A stretch of 64,000 nt of DNA, from positions 246,362-310,361 of the forward strand of contig CAVPUQ010000009.1 of the NCBI GenBank assembly GCA_963708985.1. Direction: 5' to 3'. The translations under genes were made by a program, and so were the position numbers. The stretch is from an uncultured Actinomycetes bacterium (GTDB taxonomy: Bacteria; Actinomycetota; UBA4738; HRBIN12). Positions 18,906-35,745 of the stretch are shown here, piece after piece. The first letter of the stretch is position 1, and every line of letters starts with the position of its first letter. The notes under the pieces are model-generated. The model saw only the letters and a program-made list of their open reading frames with translations. It ran no database searches and was not told where the DNA came from.

Positions 18906-20338
18906 CTACAGTGGGACGTGCGACAGGACCATGATCCGCGGCTCGCTCATCTCCTCCATCGCGAAGCGCAGGCCCTCGCGGCCGAAGCCCGAGTCCTTCG
19001 AGCCCCCGTACGGCATCTGGTCGGCCCGGAACGCCGAGATGTCGTTCACGATCACGCCACCGACCTCGATCTCGCGGTGCGCCTGGAACGCCCGGTTGAG
19101 GTCGTTCGTGAACACGCCGGCCTGCAGGCCGAAGCGCGAGTCGTTCACGACGGCGATCGCCTCGTCGAAGGTCTCGTACGGGCTGATCGTCACGACCGGC
19201 CCGAAGATCTCCTCGCGGCAGACCTTCATCTCGGGCTTCACCTCGGCAGATGAGCGTCGGGTGGTAGAAGGGTCCCTCGAAGCGTGCCGCCGGTGAGGAT
19301 CTCGGCGCCCTGCGAGACGGCCTCCTTCACCCACGCGTCGATCCGCTCGACCTCGCTCTTCTGGATGACCGGGCCGACGTCGACCGTCGGGTCCATGGGA
19401 TCGCCGGTCTTGAGGTTCTCGACCTCCTTGACCAGCCGAGCGGCGAAGTCCTCGTAGACCTCGCTCGACACGAGCACGCGCTGCACGCTGATGCAGCTCT
19501 GCCCCGCCTGGTAGTAGCCGCCGAACGCGATCCGCGCGGCCGCGAGATCCAGGTCGGCGTCCGAGTGCACGATGACCCCGGCGTTTCCACCGAGCTCGAG
19601 CGTGACCCGCTTCTTCGGGTCCAGGCCCTTCAGGTACCAGCCGATGTCGGGCGAGCCGGTGAACGAGATCTTCCGGAATCGCTCGTCGCGCGCCATCCGG
19701 TCCGCGACGCTCGAGCGCACCGGGAGCACCTGGTACATGCCCTTCGGCAGGTCGGTCTCCTCGAACAGCTCGGCCAGGCGCAGCGCCCCGATCGGGGTGG
19801 CGGAGGCCGGTTTCACGACGATCGGCGCGCCGACCGCGAGCGCCGGTGCGACCTTGTGGGCCACGAGGTTCAGCGGGAAGTTGAACGGCGTGATGCCGAA
19901 CACCGGCCCGAAGGGGAACCGCCGCAGCAGGCCGATCCGAGAGCCGAACGCGGCCTCGGTGTCCAGGCGCATCAGCTCGTCGTCACCGTGCCGCAGGACC
20001 TCGGACGCCCAGCGGAAGGTGCTGACGGCGCGCGCGGCCTCGACCTTCGCCCACTTGAGCGGCTTGCCGCCCTCGCGCGCGATCGAGCTCGGCGTTCTCG
20101 TCGAGGGTCTCGGCGAGGCGCTTCGAGATGTGGTCGAGCGCGGTCGAACGCGCCGCAACCGAGCAGACGCCGGGACTCCTCGAACGTGGCGGCCGCCGTC
20201 GCGATGGCCTCCTCGACGTCCGCGTCGCTCGGGACACCGATCTCGGCGACGACGCTCGTCGTCGTAGGGGCTCTTCACCTCGAAGATCCCCTCGCCGGTG
20301 CGCCACTCGCCGTTCACGAAGAACGGTCTGACTGCCAT
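18906..20338 (-). CDS. NAD(P)-dependent aldehyde dehydrogenase (indels near 19250-19290 and 20085-20260)
   Basis: ITPFNFP, FTGS, LELGGN, GQSCIS, EEIFGP, PYGGSKDSGFGREG. Confidence 0.88.
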
Positions 20339-20420
20339 GGGACGATCACCACCCTTCCGACGAAGGTGACCCGAGCCCGACGTTCGGGCCGGGCCACCCC
20401 CGGGTTCCTGGCTGGTTCGC

Positions 20421-21865
20421 TCAGTCGAGCGACCACATCACATGCTTGATCTGCGTGTAGTCCTCGAGCGAGTACATCGACATGTCCTTGCCGTACCCGC
20501 TCTCCTTGTACCCACCGTGCGGCATCTCGGCGCTGATCATGAAGTGGGTGTTCACCCACACTGCGCCGAACTGCAGCCGCCGGGCCACGCGCATCGCACG
20601 AGCCGCGTCCTTGGTCCACACGGAGGACGCGAGGCCGTACACGACGTCGTTCGCCCACTGCGACCGCCTGGTCCTCGTCCGAGAAGCGCTGGACCGAGAC
20701 GACCGGCCCGAAGACCTCCTGCTGCACGATCTCGGACTTCTGGTCGACGCCGGCCACGACGGTCGGCTTGTAGTAGAAGCCGGCGCCGTCGATCCGCTCG
20801 CCGCCCGTGAGCACCTTGCCGCCGCCCTCGGCGGCGCGCTCGACGAACCCGGCCACGCTCTCGCGCTGGCCGCTCGAGACGAGCGGGCCCATCTCCACCG
20901 ACTCGTCCATGATCGGGCCGACCTTGATCGACTCGACGGTCGGGACGAGCGCCGAGAGCAGGTCCTCGTAGATGCTGGGGCCGGCGATCACACGGCAGGA
21001 TGCGGTGCAGTCCTGGCCTGTGTTCGTGTAGCCGGCGAACTTGAGCGTCTCGACGACCTTGTCGAGATCGGCGTCGTCGAACACGACGACCGGCGCCTTG
21101 CCGCCGAGCTCGAGGTGCGCACGCTTCACGTTCGAGGCCGCGGCGTTCGCAGCGATGATCTTGCCGGTCGCGGTGTCGCCCGTGACCGACACGAGCCGCA
21201 CCTTCGTGTTCTTCACGAGCTGGTCGCCGATGACCGAGCCGCGGCCGGTGACGACGTTGAGGACGCCGGCCGGCAGGATGCCCTCGGAGAGCTCGGCCAG
21301 GCGGAGCGCGGTGCGGGGCGTGAGCTGAGCGGGCTTGATGACGGAGACGTTGCCGGCCGCGAGCGCGGGCCCGACCTTCCAGATCGCCATCATCAGCGGG
21401 TAGTTCCAGGGACAGATGCCGGCGGTCACGCCGAGGGGCTCGCGCCGGATGAGGCTCGTGAAGCCCTTCTCGTACTCCGCCGGCGGACTTGCCCTCGAGG
21501 TGCCGGGCGGCCCCGGCGAAGAACCGCAGGTTGTCGATGATGAACGGGATATCGGCCGCCGAAACGGAGATCGGCTTGCCCACGTCCTCGGCCTCGAGCT
21601 TCGCCAGCGTGTCGACGTCCGCCTCCATGGCGTCGGCCAGGGCGAACATCATGGCCGAGCGCTCCTTCGGCGGGGTGTCGAACCAGACCTCGTCGTAGGC
21701 CTTCTGCGCCGCCTCGACGGCCCTGTCCGCGTCCTCGCGGGTCCCGACCTGGATGTTGTCGGCCGTCTCCCCGTTCGAGGGGTCGATGTTCGGCTCGACC
21801 TCGCCTCCGCCGGACTCGACCCACTCGCCGCCGATGTACATACCCCACGTCTTCATGTCGGCCAT
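20421..21865 (-). CDS. Gamma-aminobutyraldehyde dehydrogenase (PatD/YdcW-like), copy 1 (indels near 20660 and 21480)
   Basis: RFFAGAARHLEGKSAG, PWNYP, LELGGKAP, GQDCTA, EMPHGGYKESGYGKDMS. Confidence 0.88.
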
Positions 21866-22130
21866 GCAGACCTCCCCTTCATGACGGGACCCGCGCAGGG
21901 TCGGATACGCCTGTCCGAGCAAGTATCGCGCCTGGGCTCGTTGCGAGGCCAATCGACGTTCCGGCCCCCGGGCCTCCGGGGGCTGTACGGAACGTCGCCG
22001 CCGGCCGCGAGGCTGTCCGCGCGGGACGCAGGGCCCAGCCCGGATGTGCCGGTCGGACCCTTGTCCGACGCCCCCGAGGCCGCCTAGCCTTCCGCCAGGA
22101 CGCGGGGCCGAGTCCTGAAAGGGGGCCGAC

Positions 22131-23636
22131 GTGCGCGAGGCATACGACCTGTACATCGACGGAGCCTGGGTGAAGGCGGGGACCGAGGATCGGATCCCAG
22201 TCATCGATCCCTCCACCGGGGATCAGGTGGCGACGACCGCCGCCGCGAGCGCCGCGGACGTGAAGAAGGCCGTGGACGCCGCGAGCGAAGCGTTCCGCGA
22301 CGGCCGCTGGAGCCGCATCCCGCCGGCCGACCGGGCCCGGGTGCTCCTGAAGGTCGCCGACCTCATCGAGGAGCGCCTCATGGAGCTCTCCAGGGTCGAG
22401 TCGATCGACGCGGGCAAGCCGATCAAGCTGACCTCGAACTTCGACGTGCCGTTCGGGGCGGACAACGTCCGCTTCTTCGGCGGCGCCGCCCGCCTGCTCG
22501 AGGGGAAGGCCGCCGGCGAGTACTCCGCCGACCACCTGAGCTACCTCCGTCGGGACCCCCTGGGCGTCATCGCGGCGATCTGCCCGTGGAACTACCCGTT
22601 CCAGATCGAGGTCTGGAAGGTCTTCCCGGCGATGGCAGCCGGCAACACGGTCGTGATGAAGCCGGCCAAGGAGACACCGCTGTCGGCGTTCGAGCTCGCG
22701 GAGCTCTGCGCGGAGGCCGGGCTGCCGCCGGGCGTGCTGAACGTCGTGACCGGGCGCGGCGCCGAGATGGGAACGCCGCTGATCCAGCACCCCGACGTGC
22801 GGATGGTGTGCCTGACCGGCGACACCGAGACCGGCAAGCTCGTCATGAAGTCCGCGGCCGAGGGGGTGAAGCGGCTGCACCTGGAGCTCGGGGGCAAGGC
22901 GCCGTTCATCGTGTTCGACGACGCCGACCTCGAGGCCGCGGTGCGCGGGGCGGTCGCCGGCGCCTACATCAACTGCGGCCAGGACTGCACGGCGGCCACG
23001 CGCGCGTACGTGCAGGAGCCCTTGTACGCGGACTTCGTGTCCGGCGTTGCGGACCTGGCGCGCGAGCTGAACGTCGGGCCGACGCTCGACCCGGCGACCG
23101 ACATGGGACCCCTCATCACGATGTCTCAGCGAGACGGGGTGCACGGCTTCGTCGAGCGCGCGCGCGGCTACGGCGCCAAGATCGTGACCGGCGGCGAGTT
23201 CTCCAGCCGCCCCGGGACCGAGAGCGGCTCCTACTACGAGCCGACCGTCATCACGGACGTCGCCCAGGACTCCGAGGTCGTGCAGCGCGAGATCTTCGGG
23301 CCCGTGCTCGTCGTCCTGCCGTTCCGGGAGGACGAGGACGCCATCACGATGTCCAACGACGTCGTGTACGGCCTGTCGAGCTCGGTCTGGACGCGCGACA
23401 TCTACCGCGCGATGGACGCCTCGCGGCGCTTGCAGTTCGGCAACACGTGGATCAACGAGCACATCCCGATCGTGTCCGAGATGCCGCATGGCGGGGTGAA
23501 GGAGTCCGGCTTCGGCAAGGACATGTCGATGTACGCGATCGAGGAGTTCACGACCGTGCGCCACGTGATGGCCGACATCACCGGCAAGGCCGACAAGTCG
23601 TGGCACGGCGCGGTGATGGGGGGCCTGCAGGAGTAG
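22131..23636 (+). CDS. Gamma-aminobutyraldehyde dehydrogenase-like, copy 2
   Basis: RFFGGAARLLEGKAAGEY, GQDCTA, EMPHGGVKESGFGKDMS. Confidence 0.9.
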   Translation: MREAYDLYIDGAWVKAGTEDRIPVIDPSTGDQVATTAAASAADVKKAVDAASEAFRDGRWSRIPPADRARVLLKVADLIEERLMELSRVESIDAGKPIKLTSNFDVPFGADNVRFFGGAARLLEGKAAGEYSADHLSYLRRDPLGVIAAICPWNYPFQIEVWKVFPAMAAGNTVVMKPAKETPLSAFELAELCAEAGLPPGVLNVVTGRGAEMGTPLIQHPDVRMVCLTGDTETGKLVMKSAAEGVKRLHLELGGKAPFIVFDDADLEAAVRGAVAGAYINCGQDCTAATRAYVQEPLYADFVSGVADLARELNVGPTLDPATDMGPLITMSQRDGVHGFVERARGYGAKIVTGGEFSSRPGTESGSYYEPTVITDVAQDSEVVQREIFGPVLVVLPFREDEDAITMSNDVVYGLSSSVWTRDIYRAMDASRRLQFGNTWINEHIPIVSEMPHGGVKESGFGKDMSMYAIEEFTTVRHVMADITGKADKSWHGAVMGGLQE

Positions 23637-23651
23637 GCGGGCCGGTCCGGC

Positions 23652-25205
23652 TCAGCCGTCGGCCTCGGTCGCGAGGAGCTCGCGTGCTCGCAGCGCGAGC
23701 CAGAACTCCATGCGGTCGAAGCTGGAGGACAGGTCTCGACCGGTGAGCTCCTCCACCTTGCGCATCCGGTAGCGCAGGGTGTGCCGGTGCACGAACAGCT
23801 CGGCCGCCGCGGTCTCCCATCGGGCGTTGTGCTGGAGGAACGCACGGAGGCTCCCCGTGAGCTCGCCCCCCTGCTCCCGGTCGTAGTCATCGAGGGGCTT
23901 CAACATCGCGTCGGCGAAGGCGCGGAGCGCGTCGGGATCGGCCATCGAGAGCAACAGACGGTACGTCCCGAGGTCCTCGAACCCCGCGGCGTCCCAGCCT
24001 TCGAGCCGGCACACCTGGAGCGCGTAGCGTGCCTCGCGCAGGCTCCGGCCGACCTGGTCTGGCTCGGCCGGGCCGCCCGAGCCGAGCCGTACGTCGCCGC
24101 CGATCCGCTCGACGACCGACGCCCGCAACCCGCCGAGCTCGGGGCTCGGCGAAGCCGGAAGGAGCACGTGGATACCCGTCTCGCTCCTCGAGATGAGGTA
24201 GGCGCCGCCGCCCCGGGAGAGCTGGTCCTCGGCGGCGTAGGCGAGATCGTCCGCCGAGCTCCCGTTCCCACCCTCGATCGTGGCCACGACGAGGGGGGCG
24301 CCTTTGTCGAAGCCGAACCGCTGGAGCCCTCGGACCACCTCCTGCGTCGGGAGCGAGCCTCCGGCGAGCGCGTCGAAGAAGTCACCCTGCAGCCGGCGCT
24401 CGGCCTCGGCGACGGCGCGGGACTTCGCGAGCTCGATCGCGAAGAGCGAGAGCGCGTGCCCGGCGACGATGCGATCCATCGGCGTGAGCGCCTCGGGCTT
24501 GCCGACCGCCAGGAACGCCTCGACCCGGCCCTGCGCACCGACCGGCTGGATCCAGATGTGGTGCCCGCGGTCCATGAGCGTGAGGCTGAAGCCCGTGCCT
24601 TCGGGACGCGAGCCGCGGAGCTCCTCCCAGACCCGGGGTGCCCGCTGCCGCGCGGCCGTCGACGTGGCCGCGATCGGCAGGCCGTGCAGGTCCAGGAGCA
24701 ACGCCCACCCGCCGGTCACCTTCGCGAGTGATGCGGCGATGCCCTGGGCGCCGCCGCCCTCCATGACCGCCCGGGTGAGCACGTGCTCGGCGTCCACGGC
24801 GCGCTGGAGCATCTCGTACTGCTCGGCCAGCAGGCGCGTCGAGACCGCCTCCGTGATCGCGATGAACGGCACGGGATACGGGACCTCGAACAGGGGGAAC
24901 CCCGCCTGCTCCGCCGCGGTGACGAGGCCCTTCGGCACCTTGTCGTTGCCGAACCCGAGTCCGAGCCCGAGCCCCGCCAGCCCGGCCTCGGCCAGGCGCT
25001 TGATGTAGGCACGCTGCTTCGCCGGGGTCTCGCCGATCCCTCGACCGGTCGTGAGCAGCAGTTCTCCGCCCTTCAGCCACGGCGTCGGATCCTCGAGCTC
25101 GCTCGCGTGCACCCAGCGCACGGGGCGGTCGACGTTCGCCTCGCCCGCGACGATGCGGAGCGCGAGGCCGGGAACGTCGAGGATGTCCCGGATGGTGAGG
25201 ACCAC
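23652..25205 (-). CDS. PucR/CdaR-family transcriptional regulator
   Basis: VRWVHASE..DPTPWLKGGELLLTTG; C-terminal HTH AAAELFVHRHTLRYR; TACAAT -10 six nt before GTG. Confidence 0.93.
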   Translation of the reverse strand: MVLTIRDILDVPGLALRIVAGEANVDRPVRWVHASELEDPTPWLKGGELLLTTGRGIGETPAKQRAYIKRLAEAGLAGLGLGLGFGNDKVPKGLVTAAEQAGFPLFEVPYPVPFIAITEAVSTRLLAEQYEMLQRAVDAEHVLTRAVMEGGGAQGIAASLAKVTGGWALLLDLHGLPIAATSTAARQRAPRVWEELRGSRPEGTGFSLTLMDRGHHIWIQPVGAQGRVEAFLAVGKPEALTPMDRIVAGHALSLFAIELAKSRAVAEAERRLQGDFFDALAGGSLPTQEVVRGLQRFGFDKGAPLVVATIEGGNGSSADDLAYAAEDQLSRGGGAYLISRSETGIHVLLPASPSPELGGLRASVVERIGGDVRLGSGGPAEPDQVGRSLREARYALQVCRLEGWDAAGFEDLGTYRLLLSMADPDALRAFADAMLKPLDDYDREQGGELTGSLRAFLQHNARWETAAAELFVHRHTLRYRMRKVEELTGRDLSSSFDRMEFWLALRARELLATEADG

Positions 25206-25212
25206 GATCGGA

Positions 25213-25281
25213 TTGTACGGGGCGTACAAACGATGGGCATCCCCCAGGCCCGCCGCGCCATACCATGGACGCGCCGTACAA
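25213..25281. promoter_or_regulatory. Two putative PucR-family operator sites
   Basis: Perfect TTGTACG-N3-CGTACAA (25213-25229) and imperfect ATGGACG-N3-CGTACAA (25265-25281) in the pucR/gabT intergenic region. Confidence 0.65.
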
Positions 25282-25394
25282 AGGGCATCGGCGGGCTTGG
25301 TCCGCCGACCCCCTGACATGGCCGCCCGACCCGGGCGAGACTCTGTGTGGCCGCGCCGCGGCCTGTCGTCGTGTGCGCAAGGAGGAGGACCACG

Positions 25395-26946
<1,552 letters not shown>

Positions 26947-28286: not shown

Positions 28287-28400
28287 TGAACCGCCTGGGT
28301 ATGACGGAGACTCCGAACCTTGGAAGAGGAGGATCCATGGCCCAGGAGAAGCACCCCTCATCCAGGCGGTACCCGCCTGAAGTGAAGGACCAGCGATCCG
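28287..28400 (+). mobile_element. IS3-family (IS6110-like) left end with the first codons of orfA; truncated remnant
   Basis: TGAACCGCC...GGAGACTCC...TTGGAA followed by ATG 28337 SSRRYPPE, resembling the IS6110 left end and OrfA start as recalled; no orfB or right end seen. Confidence 0.7.
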
Positions 28401-28683
28401 GCTCGTCCTGGCGACGATGCAGCAGCAGCGCGAGTGAAGCCAGTCGGCAGCAAGATCGATGGCCAGATCTCGATGATCGCGGTCGTCGAGATCCCCGATG
28501 TCCCAGACAACTGGTTCCAGCTGAACGTCCGCATCAGAGGCCCAGCTTGGACGAGACGGAGGCCGAGGTGCGTCAGATGCTGCGCACCGTGAACCTCAGC
28601 GCGAACCGATGAACCTCGCTCCTTCCTCGATGGTCTCCGCGTAGCCTCGGGCCGACGGCCGGCGGCTGCTACCGTCGGGTGCC

Positions 28684-29964
28684 GTGAGCGCACCCGAGCC
28701 GCCGAGCGCACCGCCTCGCGACTCGCTGCTGCGGCGCATCGCGGCCGACGTCACGCCGCTCCGCGTCTCGCGTGACTTCCGGGTGATCTGGAGCGGACTC
28801 CTCGTCAGCGAGCTCGGGTACCAGTTCACGCTCGTCGCGACCTACTACCAGGTGACGAAGCTGACGGGCTCGGCCGCCGCGGTCGGGATGATCGGGCTCG
28901 TCGGGTTCCTCGCGCTCGTCGTCGGGGCGCTCGTCGGCGGCTCGATCCTCGACGCGTTCGACCGGCGCACGCTGCTGATCTGGTCGCAGGTCGGGTACAT
29001 GGCCTCGGCGTCGCTGCTGCTTGCGGGGGCGATCCACGGCCACCCGCCGGTCGGGCTCGTGTACGCCGGTGTCGCGATCATCGCGATGGTCTCTGCGGTC
29101 GAGGGGCCGACGCGCTCGGCGATGACCCCCCGGCTCGTCGGCCTCGAGCTCCTGCCCTCGGCGCTCGCGCTCAACCAGGTCATCTGGAACGCCACGGGGC
29201 TCATCGGGCCGGCCTTCGCCGGGGTCGTCATCGCGAAGGCCAACCTATCGTGGGCGTACGGCATCGACCTCGCGACGTACGGCGTGATGCTCGCCGTGGC
29301 GATCTCGGTCCGTCCGATGCCACCCGAGCGCACCGAGGGCGCCTCGAGCGGATGGGCTGCCGTGAAGGAGGGGTTCGGGTACCTGCGCGAACGGCGCGTC
29401 CTGCAGTCGACGTTCGTGATCGACATCGTCGCGATGGTGTTCGGGATGCCGCGAGCGCTCTTCACGATCCTGGCGGTCATGCAGTTCCACGCCGGACCAG
29501 AGGTCGTCGGGCTGCTGTTCGCCGCGCCGGCGGTCGGCGCGCTCCTCGGCGCGCTCACGACCGGATGGGTGAAGCACGTGCGGCGACAGGGCTGGGCCGT
29601 GATCTGGGCGGTGGTCCTGTGGGGCATCGGCATCGCGGCGTTCGGGCTCGTCGGCGATCGGCTGTGGCTCGGTCTCGCGTTCCTCGCGTTCGCGGGGGCG
29701 GCCGACGTGATCTCGGCGGTGTTCCGCTCGACGATCCTGCAGCTCACGGTCCCCGACAACCTGCGCGGACGGATCTCGGGCATCCACATCCTCGTCGTGA
29801 CCGGGGGGCCGAGGCTCGGGGACCTCGAGGCCGGGCTCGTCGCGGCGGCGTTCACGCCGACCGTGTCGGTGGTCTCGGGCGGGCTGCTCTGCATCGCGGG
29901 GGCGGCGCTCGTCGCGTGGCGCGTGCCGGCGTTCCGCCGGTACCGCGCCGGCGACCCCGTCTGA
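28684..29964 (+). CDS. MFS transporter (EntS/DHA3-like)
   Basis: About 12 hydrophobic segments; DAFDRR, MVFGMPRALF, GGPRLGD. Confidence 0.9.
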   Translation: MSAPEPPSAPPRDSLLRRIAADVTPLRVSRDFRVIWSGLLVSELGYQFTLVATYYQVTKLTGSAAAVGMIGLVGFLALVVGALVGGSILDAFDRRTLLIWSQVGYMASASLLLAGAIHGHPPVGLVYAGVAIIAMVSAVEGPTRSAMTPRLVGLELLPSALALNQVIWNATGLIGPAFAGVVIAKANLSWAYGIDLATYGVMLAVAISVRPMPPERTEGASSGWAAVKEGFGYLRERRVLQSTFVIDIVAMVFGMPRALFTILAVMQFHAGPEVVGLLFAAPAVGALLGALTTGWVKHVRRQGWAVIWAVVLWGIGIAAFGLVGDRLWLGLAFLAFAGAADVISAVFRSTILQLTVPDNLRGRISGIHILVVTGGPRLGDLEAGLVAAAFTPTVSVVSGGLLCIAGAALVAWRVPAFRRYRAGDPV

Positions 29965-29977
29965 CTAGGCTTGCGCC

Positions 29978-31686
29978 ATGGCGGCGCCGGTCACGCTCGT
30001 CGAGCTCCGGGTGCTCGAGGGCCCGAACCTGTACTTCCCTCGACCCGCGATCAAGCTCACGCTCGCGGTGCCCGGGTGGCTCGCGCTCCCCGAGGAGCGG
30101 TTCGCCGCGCGAGCGGCCGCGGCCGGCGGCAACGGCGGGCGCTGTGGACGGCCCGGATCCGAGCAGCGGCGCCGAGCGGTCGCCCGGGTCGCGTCGAGCC
30201 TGACCCGGCGGCTCGCCTCGGCCGCCGATGTCCGGCTCGCGGTCCGCGCCCGCCCCGGAGCCCGCGAGGGCGAGATCGTCGTCGCGTACCCCTGGCGACG
30301 GCGTGGCTCGGCCGAGGCGCTCGGCCGCGAGGTCGCGGCCCTCCTCGAGGCGCTCCTCGACGCCCGCCGCTCGCCCGAGCGCGCGATCGCGACCGCGGCG
30401 GCAAGGCTCCGCGAGGTCGCGCCCGGCGACGAGCCGAGCGTGCCCGACCCGACGATCCCGGTGATCCAGGTGACCGGGACGAACGGGAAGACGACGACGG
30501 TTCGGCTCCTCGCGCACCTCGTGCGGAGCGCGGGCAAGCGGGTCGCGTACTCCACGACCGACGGCGTGTACCGCGACGACGGCGTGCTCGTGGAGGAGGG
30601 CGACTACTCGGGGTTCGGGGGCGCCGCGCGGGCGCTCGCGCAGGAGCCCGACGTCGCGGTGCTCGAGACGGCGCGCGGCGGCATCCTGCTCCGCGGGATC
30701 GGCGTGCTGCACAACGACGTCGCGGTCGTCACGAACGTGTCCGAGGACCACCTCGGCCTCCACGGCATCGACACGATCGACCAGCTCGCCGAGGTCAAGG
30801 CATCCGTCACGAGGATCACGCGTCCCGAGGGCTGGGTGGTGCTGAACGCCGACGACCCTCGCGTGCTCGCGATGCGCCGGGGCGCGATCGGGCGGCCGTG
30901 GCTCTGCTCGACCGACCCGGACCACCCGGCCCTCCGCCAGGTCCTCGGCGAGGGCGGCCGCGCGACGACGGTGCTCGACGGGTGGCTCACGGCGCTCGAG
31001 GGTTCGGACGCTCGGCCCCTCGTACGCACGGAGGACGTCCCGGTCACGATCGCCGGCGTCTCGACGCCGAACGTGCGGAACGCGCTCGGCGCGGCCTCGG
31101 CCGCGCTCGCGATCGGCCTGCCCGAGCGCGCGATCGTCCGAGGGCTGAAGACGTTCGTGCTCGACGAGGAGCGCAACCCCGGCCGCGCGAACCTGTACGA
31201 GCTCGAGGGCCGGATCGTCGTGATCGACTACGCCCACAACGAGGCCGGGATGGAGGGACTCGTCGAGATCTGTCACGGCTTGCGCCGCAACGATCGCGAG
31301 GTCTGGCTCGCGATCTGTGCCGCCGGCGACCGCACCGACGACGATCCTGCACGCGCTTCGCGTACCGAGCGGCGCGCGGCGCCGACCACCGTCGCGATCG
31401 CCGAGCTCCTCCCCTACCTGCGGGGGCGCGAGCGCCGCGGACGTGGTCGCACGTCTCCGCGCCGGCGCGCTCGACGGCGGGGTCGAGGAGCTCGACGTCT
31501 TCCCCGACGAGCTCGCGGCGCTGAAGCACATGCTCGGTCTCGCCCGCCGCGGCGACGTCGTCGCGGTGACGGCGCTCGGCATGCGGCCCGAGATCTTCGC
31601 GTGGCTCGAGCGCGCCGGCGCCGCCCGACTCACGCCCGCGCGGGTGAGACGCCTCGTTCGCATGGCGCGGCCCGAAGGCGTTGTAG
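29978..31686 (+). CDS. Cyanophycin-synthetase-like Mur ligase lacking the ATP-grasp domain (indels after about 31340; 3' end approximate)
   Basis: N-terminal LRVLEGPNLY like the CphA N domain, then VTGTNGKTTT, ETARGGILLRG, DHLGLHGIDT..QLAEVK, NADDP, PGR, DYAHN, GDR. Confidence 0.8.
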
Positions 31687-31688
31687 CC

Positions 31689-32019
31689 TCACCGACGCTC
31701 GGCGTCGCGCACGCACAGGACCGCCCACGGGATCGCGTCGAGGCGCTCGGGCGGCGATCGGGTCGCCGCAGACGTCGCACATGCCGTACGTGCCCTCGTC
31801 GAGCTTCTCGAGGGCGCGGCTCACGTCGCGGAGCTTCGCGTCGAGCTTCTTCGCGGCGTCGACCTGCGTGATGCGCTCGATCGCCTGGTTCGTGCCCTCG
31901 CCGACGCGCTTGCCGAACGACACCGCGCCCATCGGGTCGCGGGGCGCGGCGGTCAGCTCGGCGAGCTCGGCCTCGAGGGCGTCGCGCGTGCGTTCGAGCA
32001 GCGCGCGCCGGAGGTCCAT
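31689..32019 (-). CDS. DksA/TraR-family zinc-finger protein (indel near 31755)
   Basis: Coiled coil then ALEKLDEGTYGMCDVCGDPI..ERLDAIPWAVLCVRD; starts 6 nt after the cphA stop. Confidence 0.85.
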
Positions 32020-32025
32020 CGGCCA

Positions 32026-34883
32026 TCAGACGTCGAGGAGGTCGGGGTCGCCGCCAGCGGCCTCCACCGCGCCGTCGTCGTCGGGCGCGAGGACCGCCGG
32101 CGCCGCGAGCGAGCTGCGGGCCTCGATCTCCTTGAAGACGTCGGTCGCGTGGTCGACGCACACCACGACGAGGTCGCCGGGACGCGAGCGGTCGATCGCC
32201 TGGCGCGTGGCCTCGATCTCGTCGAGCACGATCTCGACCTGCTTGCACGCGCGCGCCCTCGCGCCATCGCCGCGCGTACGCCCTCGAGCACCAGGCGCGG
32301 CGGTCTCGCCGCGCTCGCGGCCCGCGGGGCGCAGCGGTCCTCGCGGACGATCACACGTCGAAGTACTGGGCGGCGATCCGGCCGAGCTCGCGCATGTCCT
32401 CGTCGCGCCGGTCGCCCGCGGTGGCGATGACGGCGACCCGCAGGTTCGCCGACCACGACGGCTCGCCAGGGCGGCCGAGGACCGGCGCGTCCGACGCAGC
32501 GGTCGACGAAGTCGCCGAGCATCTCCAGCCCGGGCGCGTTGTGGCAGTAGTCGACGATCACGTTGACGCCGTTGACGTCGACCTCGTTGAGCCGGCCGGG
32601 GGACAGGTAGATCGAGGTCGTGAACGTGCGCAGGCCCTGCCGGATGTCGTGCAGGGGCGCGCCGGCGACGAACGCCGCGGCGGCGGCGGCCAGCGAGTTC
32701 TGGACGTTCATCCGGGCGCGGCCCTCGAAGGTGGCCGGGCAGCGGGTGGATCCACGCGAGCTGCATCGTGCGGCGGCCGTGCTGGATCACCATCATCTCG
32801 CCGCGCTCGCTCTGCTCGAGCACGATCGCCTTGCGCCCGCGCCGGCACGCACCGGTCGATGATCGCGTTGCTGCCCGGCTCTCATCGAGAACCAGACCAC
32901 CTGCCGCGAGCAGGCCTTGCCGCATCTCGCGCACCAGCGGGTCGTCGGCGTTGAGCACGGCCGAGCCGGTCGCGCGGCACGGCCTCGACGATGACCGCCT
33001 TGACGTCCGCGAGCTGCTCGACCGTGTCGATGCCGCGCAGCCCGAGGTGGTCGCCGGTCACGTTGAGCACGACGGCGACGTCGTTGCGCTCGTAGCCGAG
33101 GCCCTCGCGCAGGATGCCGCCGCGGGCGACCTCGAAGACCGCGAAGTCGACGCGCGGGTTCTGCAGCACCATCTGCGCCGACTGCGGGCCGGACGCGTCG
33201 GCGCGGATCACCAGGCGCTCGTCGATGACGACGCCGTCGGTCGAGGTCATGCCGACCTTGCGGCCCATGCCCTTGAAGATGTGGCTGATCATCCGGATCG
33301 TGGTCGTCTTGCCGTTGGTGCCGGTCACGGCGACGATCGGGATCCGCGAGGGCGCGCCCGGCGGGAACAGCATGTCGACGACGGGCTTCGCGATGAACTG
33401 CGGCTCGCCGTCGGTCGGGTGCGTGTGCATCCGGAAGCCCGGGTGCGGCGTTGACCTCGCAGATCGCGCCGCCGGTCTCGCGCACCGGCTCGGTGATGTC
33501 GGGGCAGATGAAGTCGATGCCGGCGATGTCGAGGCCGACCATGCGGGCGGCCTCCTCGGCGATCTCGACGTTCTCCGGGTGCGCCTCGAAGGTGCGGTCG
33601 ATCGAGATGCCGCCGGTCGACATGTTGCCGGTCGCGGCGAGCTTGACCATCGCGCCCTCGGGCGGCACGTCGTCGAGCGCGTAGCCCTGTTCGACGAGCG
33701 CCTCGGCGGCCTCGTCGACCTTGATCGGGTGAGCACCTTCTCGTGGCCGACGCCGCGCCGCGGGTCGGCGTTGGTGATCGTCGACGAGCTCGCTCGACGG
33801 TGTGCTTGCCGTCGCCGGTCACGCGAGGCCGGCACGCGCTCGGCGATGGCGACCATCCGGCCGTCGATGACGAGCAGCGGTAGTCCTTGCCGGTGACGAA
33901 GGACTCGACGATGACGTCGCCGCGGCGCGGCCCTCGGCGAGCGCGCTGAAGCCGCCGCGCACGTCGCGCTCGTCCTGCAGGTCGAGGCAGACGCCGCGGC
34001 CGTGGTTGCCGTCGAGCGGCTTGATCACGACCGGGTAGCCGATGCGCTTCGCGGCCGCGACGGCCGCGTCCTCGTCGCGCACGATCTCCTGCGCGGGCAC
34101 CGGCAGCCCGGCCGCGGCGAGCAGCTGGCTGGTCAGGTCCTTGTCGCCGGCGATGTCGACGGCGAGCGCCGAGGTCTTCGAGGTCATCGTCGCGCGGATC
34201 CGCTGCTGGTACCGCCCTGGCCGAGCTGCACGAGCGAGTCCTGGTTCAGCCGGATCCAGGGGATGTCGCGGCTGACGGCCTCGTCGACGATCGCCTGCGT
34301 CGACGGACCGAACGCGCGGCGCTCGGCGCGCAGGATGAAGCGCTCGAGCTCGGCGTCGAAGTCGAAGTCCGGGTCGGCCTCGACGAGGTGGTTGACCAGG
34401 CGCACGGCGAGGCGTCCGGCCGCCAGGCCGACCTGCTCGTCCCAGTAGCCGTAGATGACGTTGTAGCGGCCGGGCTCGCCCTTGCTGCGCGGGTCTTGCC
34501 CCGGCAGACGTGCGCGCCGGACTCGCGCTGCAGCTCGAGCGCGACGTGCTCGGCGACGTGGCCGAGCCAGGTGCCCTCGTTCAGCCGCTCGAGGAAGCCG
34601 CCGCGCGTGCCGCGCGAGCACGAGTGCTCGCCGCAGGCCGGGCAGCAGCTCGAGGAGGTCGTCGGTGAAGCCGGGGATCGTGTTCGAGGGGAAGTGCTCG
34701 AGCGAGCCGAGGTCGACGACGAGGTGGATCGCCGGGTCGTAGGACCAGAAGTTCGGGCCGCGGTAGACCCGGGTCTCGACGATCGTGCAGGTCGGGCTTC
34801 GCCCTGCGGCTTGCTCGCCGCGGGCTCGCTGCTTCGCGCGCCGGCGCTCGGCCTGTAGGTCCGGGTCCGAGCTTCGCCGTCAC
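32026..34883 (-). CDS. cphA: Cyanophycin synthetase CphA1 (many indels)
   Basis: RVYRGPNFWS; HSC-x19-HVAEH; FGPST; KPLDGNHGRG; NMSTGG; EVNAAPG.RMH; VTGTNGKTTT; ARGGILREG; DYCHN; GTGA overlap with cphB. Confidence 0.92.
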
Positions 34884-35745
34884 TCCGAGGCCTCGCGCTC
34901 GCTCGAGGGCCCGCGGCTCGGCGAGCAGCGTCGCGGCCGCGCAGGTCGAACCAGTAGCCCGCCGGGAGCGAGTGCAGGACCGCGCCCGCTCACCATGATC
35001 GGACGATAGCCCTTGCCCGCGGAACGCGTCGGTCTTGACGTGGCCGCCGTCGACGATCGTCACGGCGCCCCTGCCCGATCACCTGGAGCGTGCGGTCGGG
35101 ATGCACGATCGCGCACGTGTCCTCGTCGACGCCGATGCCGAGCAGCGCCGGCGACTGCGCCACGAGCGCGAGCAGCCGCCCGACCCGGCCGCGCTGCTCG
35201 AAGTGCTGGTCGATGACGACGTTCTGGCATGACGCCGAGCCCCGCCGACAGCTGCACCATCCGGTTCTTCGGCGTCGGCGCCCGAGCTGCCCGAACGCCA
35301 CCATGTGGCTGGCCATCGCGCTCGCCCCCGCGCACGTGCCCGCGAGCACGGCCCCGCGGTCGTGCGCGAGCAGCAACCGCGTCCGCGAGCTTCGTGCCCG
35401 CCGACGACCTGGGTCAGTCGTGACTGGTTGCCGCCCGTCAGGAACACGCCGGTGGCATCGGCGAGGAGCTTCGCGACGGCCGCGTCGTTCGCCTCCGCGC
35501 GTTCCTCGGGTCGCAGGCCCGAGACCCGCCCGATCCCGAGGCCCGTCGAACAGGCCACGGTAGATCTCGATCGCCTCATCGCCGAGCGAGGATGCCGTCG
35601 AGATCACGACGACGTGGCCCTCGGGCCCGCCGGCGAACCTCGCGAACCGGCTGAGGACGGCCTTGTGCCGCAGCTTGTCCTCGGCCCCGCCGATCACCAT
35701 CACGGGGCCCGCCGCGAGCGCGACCGGACGCACGGGCTTGCTCAT
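34880..35745 (-). CDS. cphB: Cyanophycinase (several indels)
   Basis: IGGAEDK, TGGNQSRL, GT(C/S)AGA, DQHFEQRGR.GRL, GVDEDT; directly upstream of cphA. Confidence 0.9.

Follow-up and report, generated by a model that had tools for sequence, protein, structure and literature searches.

Cyanophycin is a nitrogen-storage polymer whose synthesis is currently explained by CphA1, which carries out both reactions in one protein, and by CphA2, a dipeptide polymerase. In the genome of an uncultured Actinomycetes bacterium (assembly GCA_963708985.1), a cphA gene is faced by a second gene that codes for the side-chain half of CphA1, and the question is why such a gene should be kept beside the complete one. 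The locus lies in a 64,000-nucleotide stretch of contig CAVPUQ010000009.1, hereafter the window. A first-pass annotation, made from the DNA letters, had described this second gene as a CphA paralogue with an N-like domain and a CphA-type Mur-ligase (M) domain, devoid of the ATP-grasp (G) domain, and facing the cyanophycin operon. Our results substantiate this description by profile comparison with hhalign, by TIGR02068 scores, by Foldseek searches and by structural superposition, and a full cphA gene is indeed convergent with the N-M gene.

Architecture and structure of the N-M protein

The open reading frame (ORF) of the N-M gene starts with an ATG at 29978 on the + strand. Its first residues are MAAPVTLVELRVLEGPNLYF, its N-terminal sequence reads MAAPVTLVELRVLEGPNLYFPRPAIKL, and VTGTNGKTTT begins at residue 164. 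The motifs ETARGGILLRG, DVAVVTNVSEDHLGLHGIDTIDQLAEVK, NADDP, DYAHN and GDR are found alike in this ORF and in the minus-strand pieces of cphA, and the CphA-like start and the ensuing Mur domain are present as first reported. The junction between the two domains, which had been read as open, is in frame here and in every orthologue examined, including those on complete Kribbella and Terrabacter chromosomes. This recurrence of the N-M architecture also argues against a collapsed or misassembled copy of a full-length cphA.

Residues 158-463 of the N-M protein align to positions 477-780 of TIGR02068, the 862-position cyanophycin synthetase model, with 316.3 bits (E 4e-94, NCBIfam), which is below the curated cut-off of 850 bits. 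The best MurE model reaches 90.6 bits against a cut-off of 373, and the PgsB/CapB model TIGR04012 only 20.5 bits against 222.7. Pfam Mur_ligase_M (PF08245) matches the window protein at 69 bits (cut-off 24), and Mur_ligase_C (PF02875) scores 20.6 bits, under its cut-off of 28.4, because of frame breaks in the window copy that are treated below; intact orthologues score 55-91 and 34-62 bits, respectively. The absence of an ATP-grasp domain is confirmed, as Pfam gave no match in the N-M protein and a hidden Markov model (HMM) of the CphA G domain, cphA_G, gave none in any ORF of the N-M type.

The N-terminal part is less conspicuous. Pfam matched nothing in the first 160 residues, and the N-domain family PF18921 remained silent at E <= 0.01 in the window protein and in 54 of the 61 homologues scanned. 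We therefore compared profiles, using an alignment (A1) of 29 full-length homologues that are 33-81% identical to P0003, the 563-residue orthologue from a genome of the same genus. The first 152 residues of A1 aligned with the N domains of 14 CphA1 proteins over 146-147 columns (hhalign 98.6-99%, E 1e-15 to 3e-17). In the hhalign alignments, the positions of the CphA1 Cx19HxxEH site fall on non-conserved residues of the N-M family, whose consensus does not have C/H/E/H there, in agreement with the reported absence of this site. In a comparison of whole profiles, the M domains of the N-M family and CphA1 aligned over 393 columns with 39% identity.

We modelled the family with AlphaFold2 from A1, with P0003 and not the broken window protein as the first row, and obtained a predicted local distance difference test score of 94 and a predicted template modelling score (pTM) of 0.92. 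The best Foldseek matches of this model are CphA1 structures (7lgj_A, E 9e-37, TMq 0.81), and MurE reaches a TMq of 0.55. Residues 5-545 superpose on residues 1-877 of TeCphA1 (7wae_A) with Z 54.1 and a root-mean-square deviation of 3.3 A over 520 residues (VIA-align); the alignment starts from the first residue of the chain and jumps over the G domain. The best chain other than CphA is a MurC, with Z 33 over 347 aligned residues. Hence, in the predicted structure N packs on M in the manner of CphA1, and the G domain is missing. Since profile-profile comparison and fold agree where PF18921 had failed, we regard the homology of the N domain as settled. Altogether, the window family combines an N-like domain and a complete CphA-type M domain in about 540-600 residues, without G, near cphA. 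As a side observation, P0125 (745 residues) carries a C-terminal TPR_5 extension, which is also present in 12% of one 50-member ESM Atlas cluster.

The invariant columns of A1 include G166, T167, N168, K170, E229, R232, D256, H257, K273, N289, D292, R402, D416, H419, N420, D450 and R451; when the 29 orthologues are considered for K170, T171, E229, D256, H257, K273, N289, R402, H419, D450 and R451, these are all invariant or nearly so. PMC9427784 gives K499, T500, E558, R731 and H748 as the ATP/Mg residues of TeCphA1. They correspond to K170, T171, E229, R402 and H419 of the N-M protein, that is, Lys and Thr of the P-loop, the Glu that binds Mg, and Arg and His of the lid. About 58 conserved M positions are identical in the N-M clade and CphA1 in an M alignment of 199 rows, among which R175, D208, A231-R232-G233-G234, G359 and N420 differ from the two MurE-like rows. 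Judged from these residues, the M domain is predicted to be catalytically complete. Moreover, the intact part of the window gene shows a ratio of nonsynonymous to synonymous substitution rates (dN/dS) of 0.14-0.34 against three orthologues, and the N-M gene is under purifying selection.

Only a few differences between the N-M family and CphA1 are consistent. Three are single positions, namely G214 (S in CphA1), T280 (V in CphA1) and N399, and the fourth is the loop before LRGR. In this loop, the N-M family has a conserved Tyr (Tyr478) and one extra residue, both shared with a second group of short proteins, termed short2, while CphA1 reads r-E-D..xRGR. The Arg of the N-M LRGR aligns with the Arg of DNPR in the MurE rows, and in MurE the DNPR motif contacts the incoming amino acid. 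By analogy, the amino acid used by the N-M enzyme may not be arginine; the one basis for suggesting a different amine is that the DNPR-equivalent loop differs from that of CphA1.

Phylogeny, distribution and relatives

The age of the N-M gene was addressed with trees of M segments, which were cut at HMM envelopes from all loci and from proteins of the 50%-identity representative search. A row was kept only if it covered at least 365 of the roughly 390 HMM positions, had no partial G domain and did not exactly duplicate another row. The outgroup consisted of only two MurE-like rows (from genomes G022 and G001), so that the root is weakly placed. In the FastTree phylogeny of 199 rows, the stem to all CphA-type M domains measures 2.19 substitutions per site with support 100, and the M domain groups with CphA rather than with the MurE-like ligases. 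CphA1 (99 rows, SH-like support 99) and the N-M family (58 rows, 99) form separate clades, the latter including a window subclade of 39 rows (100), and short2 forms a third clade of 40 rows with support 51. A quick IQ-TREE search under LG+C20 with posterior mean site frequencies, on 85 rows (21 chosen plus a random draw), gave a stem of 3.15 with 100 in the Shimodaira-Hasegawa-like approximate likelihood ratio test (SH-aLRT), and values of 80 for CphA1, 91 for short2 and 76 for the N-M family; the joining of the two short clades is unsupported. On these trees, the N-M gene appears as an old, deep and separate paralogue, a sister clade to CphA1. Both trees rule out a recent deletion of the G domain from the neighbouring cphA.

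Eight other short proteins with a CphA1-type N domain are scattered as single branches or pairs, most of them within the CphA1 clade. P0217, P0248, P0272, P0199 and P0210, for instance, have 560-636 residues, a strong PF18921 N domain and a Mur M domain, and are devoid of ATP-grasp. Short proteins with this type of N domain may represent independent losses of G or broken gene calls.

Sequences related to the N-M protein are abundant. A word-indexed protein search returned 7941 matches at E <= 1e-10 among 8000 scored proteins, and the best 120 of the 7941 are all 479-592 residues long and named either 'Mur ligase family protein' or 'cyanophycin synthetase' by their sources. Among representatives at 50% identity, 1161 matches at E <= 1e-30 are a mixture of the N-M clade, other short forms and CphA1. 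In the ESM Atlas, only clusters of the 'Mur ligase family protein' were found.

Homologues of the N-M gene co-occur with cphA, as the first-pass annotation had led us to expect. Among 40 relatives, a full N-M copy is present in 24, of which 23 also show a cphA-type M match (21 of 22 without the unpublished genomes G029 and G037); the other 16 comprise two with fragments, one with a cphA fragment only and 13 with neither gene. In an even draw of 401 Actinomycetota genomes, G000 among them, the N-M gene is present in 34, three of the copies being split or cut by contig ends, and all 34 carry cphA (31 of 31 without the unpublished G029, G037 and G422), although related genomes are not independent and these counts are descriptive and overstate the evidence. 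In the same sample, the gene after cphA in G303 and G335, on the same strand, codes for a different short M protein, G412 has only a fragment at a contig edge, and all the remaining genomes have neither gene.

Gene order was studied in 15 long loci, each from a different genome and with no less than 5 kb of flanking DNA (L013-L017, L019, L020, L022-L028 and L030). A full cphA, with N, G and M detected by Pfam or HMMs, is convergent with the N-M gene in 14 of them, at a distance that ranges from 25 nt (L026) to 7.4 kb (L016 and L020). The cyanophycinase gene cphB precedes cphA in 11 of these 14 loci, the remaining three being cut by the locus end. Carriers include two Kribbella and two Terrabacter genomes and two metagenome-assembled genomes, one of Chloroflexota and one of Thermomicrobiales; moreover, a convergent N-M fragment lies beside cphA in a Limnocylindrales contig (L050). 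The neighbour on the other flank of the N-M gene changes with the lineage: a transporter gene of the MFS_3 family (major facilitator superfamily, MFS) in Thermoleophilia-like genomes, fabG and inhA-like reductase genes in Actinomycetales, an M20 peptidase gene in L026 and parB in L030. MFS_3 is found upstream in 10 of the 11 short loci of relatives (L002-L012, the exception being L011) and in L013-L015 and L017, but not in L016, and it is limited to the Thermoleophilia-like relatives, being absent from Kribbella, Terrabacter and Chloroflexota. Thus, it is the link to cphBA alone that is conserved across two phyla, and the genes on the other side change. A different arrangement was seen in one actinomycetotal genome (G262, C63:202-3115), where the N-M gene follows cphA in tandem on the same strand instead of facing it.

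Compared with CphA1 (TIGR02068; 7lg5, 7lgj, 7wae), the N-M protein shares the N fold, the M domain, the ATP/Mg residues and the packing of N on M, and the two genes adjoin. In contrast, CphA1 has an ATP-grasp G domain of about 325 residues and the Cx19HxxEH site, neither of which is found in the N-M protein; the M domains are 39-45% identical, form separate deep clades and differ in the loop before LRGR. CphA2 is likewise a reduced paralogue of CphA1 with its N domain kept and one active site (PMC10273328). Its reduction is the opposite one: in CphA2 it is M that is truncated and inactive, with G retained, whereas the N-M protein has a full-length M with lid and catalytic residues and no G. 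In addition, CphA2 is described as cyanobacterial, while the genomes in which we found the N-M family belong to Actinomycetota and Chloroflexota. With MurE and further Mur ligases (MurC-F, FolC, PgsB/CapB, MurT), the N-M protein has in common Mur_ligase_M and Mur_ligase_C as domains, a P-loop, the Glu that binds Mg, a conserved Lys and the DNPR-equivalent Arg. Unlike them, the N-M protein has a CphA-type N-terminal domain in place of the UDP-MurNAc-binding one, and in the trees it lies at the far end of a long stem from the MurE-like rows.

The closest parallel in architecture is short2. These N-M proteins of about 560-660 residues have their genes directly downstream of cphA and on its strand (cphB-cphA-short2), and were found in Luteimonas, other Lysobacterales, Steroidobacteraceae, Rubrivivax and Plesiocystis (Proteobacteria and Myxococcota). 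They share with the N-M family the Tyr before LRGR, the extra residue, G214 and N399, but they are co-directional with cphA, form a clade of their own (SH-aLRT 91) and have a shorter and more diverged N domain, which aligns at 97% with the N domain of the N-M family and at 94% with that of CphA1 (hhalign). A few short2 proteins match DUF4938 (PF16292), a family for which the literature yielded a single paper naming it, on an unrelated Pseudomonas question. Like the N-M family, short2 is uncharacterised.

Partial paralogues beside cphA also occur in beta-proteobacteria. Seven loci (L051, L058, L080, L081, L084, L088 and L090) contain two tandem cphA genes, the first of which has N and G and a weak, partial M. 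The tandem second cphA of these bacteria goes by the name CphA1'. Paralogues of this type (Nitrosomonas, Azonexus and Acidovorax loci) resemble the N-M case in that cphA is accompanied by a partial paralogue; however, they keep N and G with a weak and partly matching M, which is the reduction opposite to that of the N-M protein. The co-occurrence survey in PMC10206079 is restricted to cphA1, cyanophycinases and isoaspartyl dipeptidases, and PMC11915815 mentions two divergent sequences annotated as 'MurE/MurF' that group with CphA. The first-pass annotation knew of no characterised protein with the N-M architecture, and full-text literature searches, with subscription papers outside their scope, likewise found no description of one.

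The window copy and its surroundings

In the window, the gene is not as simple as first reported. The interval 29978-31686, presented as one gene, is 1709 nt long and does not form a single reading frame, owing to four insertions relative to the G007 orthologue. The ORF runs in frame to AAGDR, around residue 450, and its downstream frame is Arg/Ala/Ser-rich junk that stays open until 32566 (862 residues in all), while N-M orthologues measure 560-590 residues. The reference orthologue P0003 of G007 is a clean ORF with 90% protein identity to the window copy. Aligned to it, the window copy has one extra base at each of 31340, 31356, 31391 and 31435, and its 3' end is disordered, with additional indels at 31608-31752 when G007 and G001 are used; the true stop lies somewhere around 31,690-31,760, further indels leaving its position uncertain. 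The bases at 31340, 31356 and 31391 are missing from the relatives' contigs of three public runs (X1, X3 and X4), and base 31440 is missing from those of two of these runs.

The disturbance extends well beyond this gene. From 28700 to 31340, the window aligns cleanly with G001 and G007 at 85-89% identity; from 31340 to about 37240, some 6 kb, it has dozens of indels, nearly all of them insertions of 1 nt, which give cphA, cphB and the genes beyond the look of pseudogenes. At the position of cphB, relatives have intact Peptidase_S51 genes. The source assembly has 10 contigs, 2.96 Mb, 72% G+C and a marker completeness of 73.7%, and the nearest named relatives of the genome are labelled Solirubrobacterales, Gaiellaceae or Actinomycetota. 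Because of the bias towards insertions, the sharp boundary and the low marker completeness of an assembly with so few contigs, the frame breaks most likely reflect a local consensus error and not gene decay. That the N-M copy, cphA and cphB are true, decayed pseudogenes would account for the four insertions in the N-M gene and the dozens across cphA and cphB, and no public run with reads of the strain was found that could speak for either view (the best one matched at most 0.15 of the sampled words, and only contigs of relatives were comparable). We nevertheless hold this explanation to be distinctly improbable: the indels are packed into one segment next to a clean one, dN/dS of the intact part is 0.14 against G007, and incomplete markers in a 10-contig assembly are what consensus errors breaking genes would give. 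The N-M gene is real, despite the frame breaks in the last quarter of its window copy.

The TAGGCT that had been proposed as the -10 element of the gene is present 5 nt before the ATG, and the MFS_3 stop codon (29962-29964) lies 13 nt from that ATG. No Shine-Dalgarno sequence precedes the ATG, and scans of 28400-32300 for consensus sigma-70 promoters and for terminators returned 0 sites of either kind. A TANNNT hexamer lies 5-6 nt before the start codon picked by the script in 8 of 14 loci (L001, L002, L003, L005, L008, L009, L012 and L017), a geometry that fits the leaderless transcripts of actinobacteria. Possibly, then, TAGGCT is the promoter of a leaderless N-M mRNA, even with the MFS stop so close upstream. 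Farther upstream, at 19238-26800, the window contains a conserved block with a PucR-type regulator, a class-III aminotransferase and several aldehyde dehydrogenases, which resembles an amine/GABA-type catabolic cluster and several genes of which are frame-broken. The features of the locus are collected in Table 1.

Table 1. Features of the N-M locus in the window, and short2 genes in other loci
Feature	Position	Strand	Basis
MFS_3 transporter gene, directly upstream of the N-M gene	28684..29964	+	Pfam MFS_3, 125 bits
TAGGCT, -10-like TANNNT hexamer, possible promoter	29967..29972	+	sequence read; 5 nt before ATG
N-like domain, about 150 residues, without Cx19HxxEH metallopeptidase site	29978..30430	+	X_N HMM, 171 bits; hhalign; fold
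M domain, in-frame part: GTNGKTT P-loop, ETARGGIL, DHLG, AEVK, NADDP, NPGR, DYAHN, GDR	30452..31338	+	TIGR02068, Pfam
Four single-base insertions breaking the frame	31340..31435	+	alignments to G007 and G001; relatives' contigs
Remaining M-domain lid in another frame, ADVVARLRAGALDGG...VTALGMRPEIFAWLERAGAARL	31425..31631	+	X_M HMM positions 324-392; three-frame translation
C-terminal tail and stop, position uncertain	31632..31760	+	indels against G007 and G001; orthologue tail lengths vary
Full cphA with N, ATP-grasp G and M, convergent with the N-M gene, in 10 or more frame pieces	32116..34786	-	cphA_N/G/M HMMs in order; Pfam ATP-grasp, Mur_ligase_M, Cyanophycin_syn
cphB, cyanophycinase (Peptidase_S51), upstream of cphA, four frame pieces	35068..35739	-	cphB HMM
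short2 genes of other loci	L033:9312-11288; L085:9324-11054; L063:9344-11206; L075:9157-11127; L036 (second M match); L086:62-1750		

Possible role in cyanophycin metabolism

The Cx19HxxEH site is present in 83% of CphA1 proteins and is therefore typical of them, not defining. In the N domains of the partner CphA1s, its C/H/E/H residues are kept in 17 of 17, which rules out that the partners lack the primer site and that the N-M gene makes primers in their place. The partner M domains keep all conserved positions save the G before the invariant Asp of GDxxGP, which is replaced by A, S or V in 11 of 12 (L013, L014, L015, L016, L017, L019, L022-L026 and L030), and a split enzyme with a dead M in the partner is likewise ruled out. 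The partner CphA1s being complete, the N-M gene is no replacement for a lost function.

The N-M protein probably takes part in building or decorating cyanophycin. We lean, by a modest degree of confidence, towards its being an ATP-dependent ligase that would act in trans on cyanophycin and add an amino acid to Asp side chains. The first-pass annotation had likewise proposed a stand-alone side-chain ligase, which might add Lys, Orn or another amine or might hetero-oligomerise with CphA1, and we find this interpretation reasonable. The protein would hold a polymer-binding N-type domain rigidly packed on a complete M, the backbone-extending ATP-grasp being absent. According to PMC9427784, CphA1 holds the polymer bound at its M site between N and Mcore. 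In the same way, cyanophycin or Asp-ended precursors might be bound in the groove between N and M, the Asp beta-carboxylate would be activated by ATP to an acyl phosphate, and the alpha-amino group of an amino acid would be joined to the activated Asp, all this beside the fully competent CphA1 of the adjoining gene.

The same catalytic set could serve a ligase of small substrates, which would use free Asp or Asp oligomers to form beta-Asp-X dipeptides or short primers and leave the polymer alone. The need of CphA1 for primers, stated in PMC9262961, is in line with such an activity, as is the MFS gene directly upstream in one lineage. We nevertheless consider it unlikely, since the partner CphA1s keep their own primer-generating site, the polymer-holding N domain of CphA1 is retained and packed alike, and the MFS neighbour is limited to one lineage. 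That the N-M gene strictly co-occurs with cphA and lies next to it would also be expected of a mainly structural or regulatory subunit joining CphA1 oligomers, with catalysis secondary, and it is true that the CphA1s with a short partner cluster in one clade (SH-aLRT 98; seven beside the N-M family and five beside short2). The invariance of the ATP/Mg and ligase residues across phyla argues for catalysis, however, and convergent genes are not co-translated, so that a structural role seems very unlikely to us. We give equally little credence to a Mur-type ligase for a cell-wall peptide, another poly-amino acid or an exported metabolite, whose adjacency to cphA would be historical. The sources' plain name 'Mur ligase family protein', the MFS_3 gene upstream and two homologues with no cphA nearby, detailed below, speak for it; against this, the M domain is CphA-type by 316 versus 90.6 bits and sits beyond a stem with support 100, no enzymes other than CphA are known to have this N domain, and the gene has stayed linked to cphA while every other neighbour changed across two phyla.

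Several observations, besides the non-independence of the genomes counted above, weigh against a ligase acting in trans on cyanophycin. G021, a genome that is 96% complete, has the N-M gene and no detectable cphA, and the distant homologue of L028 (Sphaerobacteraceae) has no cphA within its 8-kb locus. The upstream MFS gene of exporter type in Thermoleophilia-like genomes could point to a small exported product. The neighbouring CphA1 retains a complete M domain and its primer-making N site, and has lost no function that needs a helper. The role of the DNPR-equivalent loop is known from MurE and is carried to CphA by analogy. Finally, the window's own copy of the N-M gene is frame-broken.

In our Actinomycetota sample, all genomes with cphA except G412, which has a fragment at a contig edge, also carry a conserved enzyme with only the side-chain half of CphA1 that is predicted to be catalytically intact. 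This suggests an unrecognised step in the metabolism of the polymer, for which a second side chain, gap filling, re-loading and priming are candidates. The family is readily testable, as Kribbella and Terrabacter provide cultured carriers and work on CphA1 has established assays and primers, and a side-chain ligase working in trans would be a useful tool for tailored cyanophycins. With considerable reserve, we put forward that the N-M family and short2 might together constitute a widespread class of cyanophycin enzymes, the third besides CphA1 and CphA2, attaching side chains other than arginine or re-charging bare Asp in trans. Should this tentative view be true, the 'cyanophycin' of Actinomycetota, Chloroflexota and some Proteobacteria would be chemically different or dynamically re-loadable.

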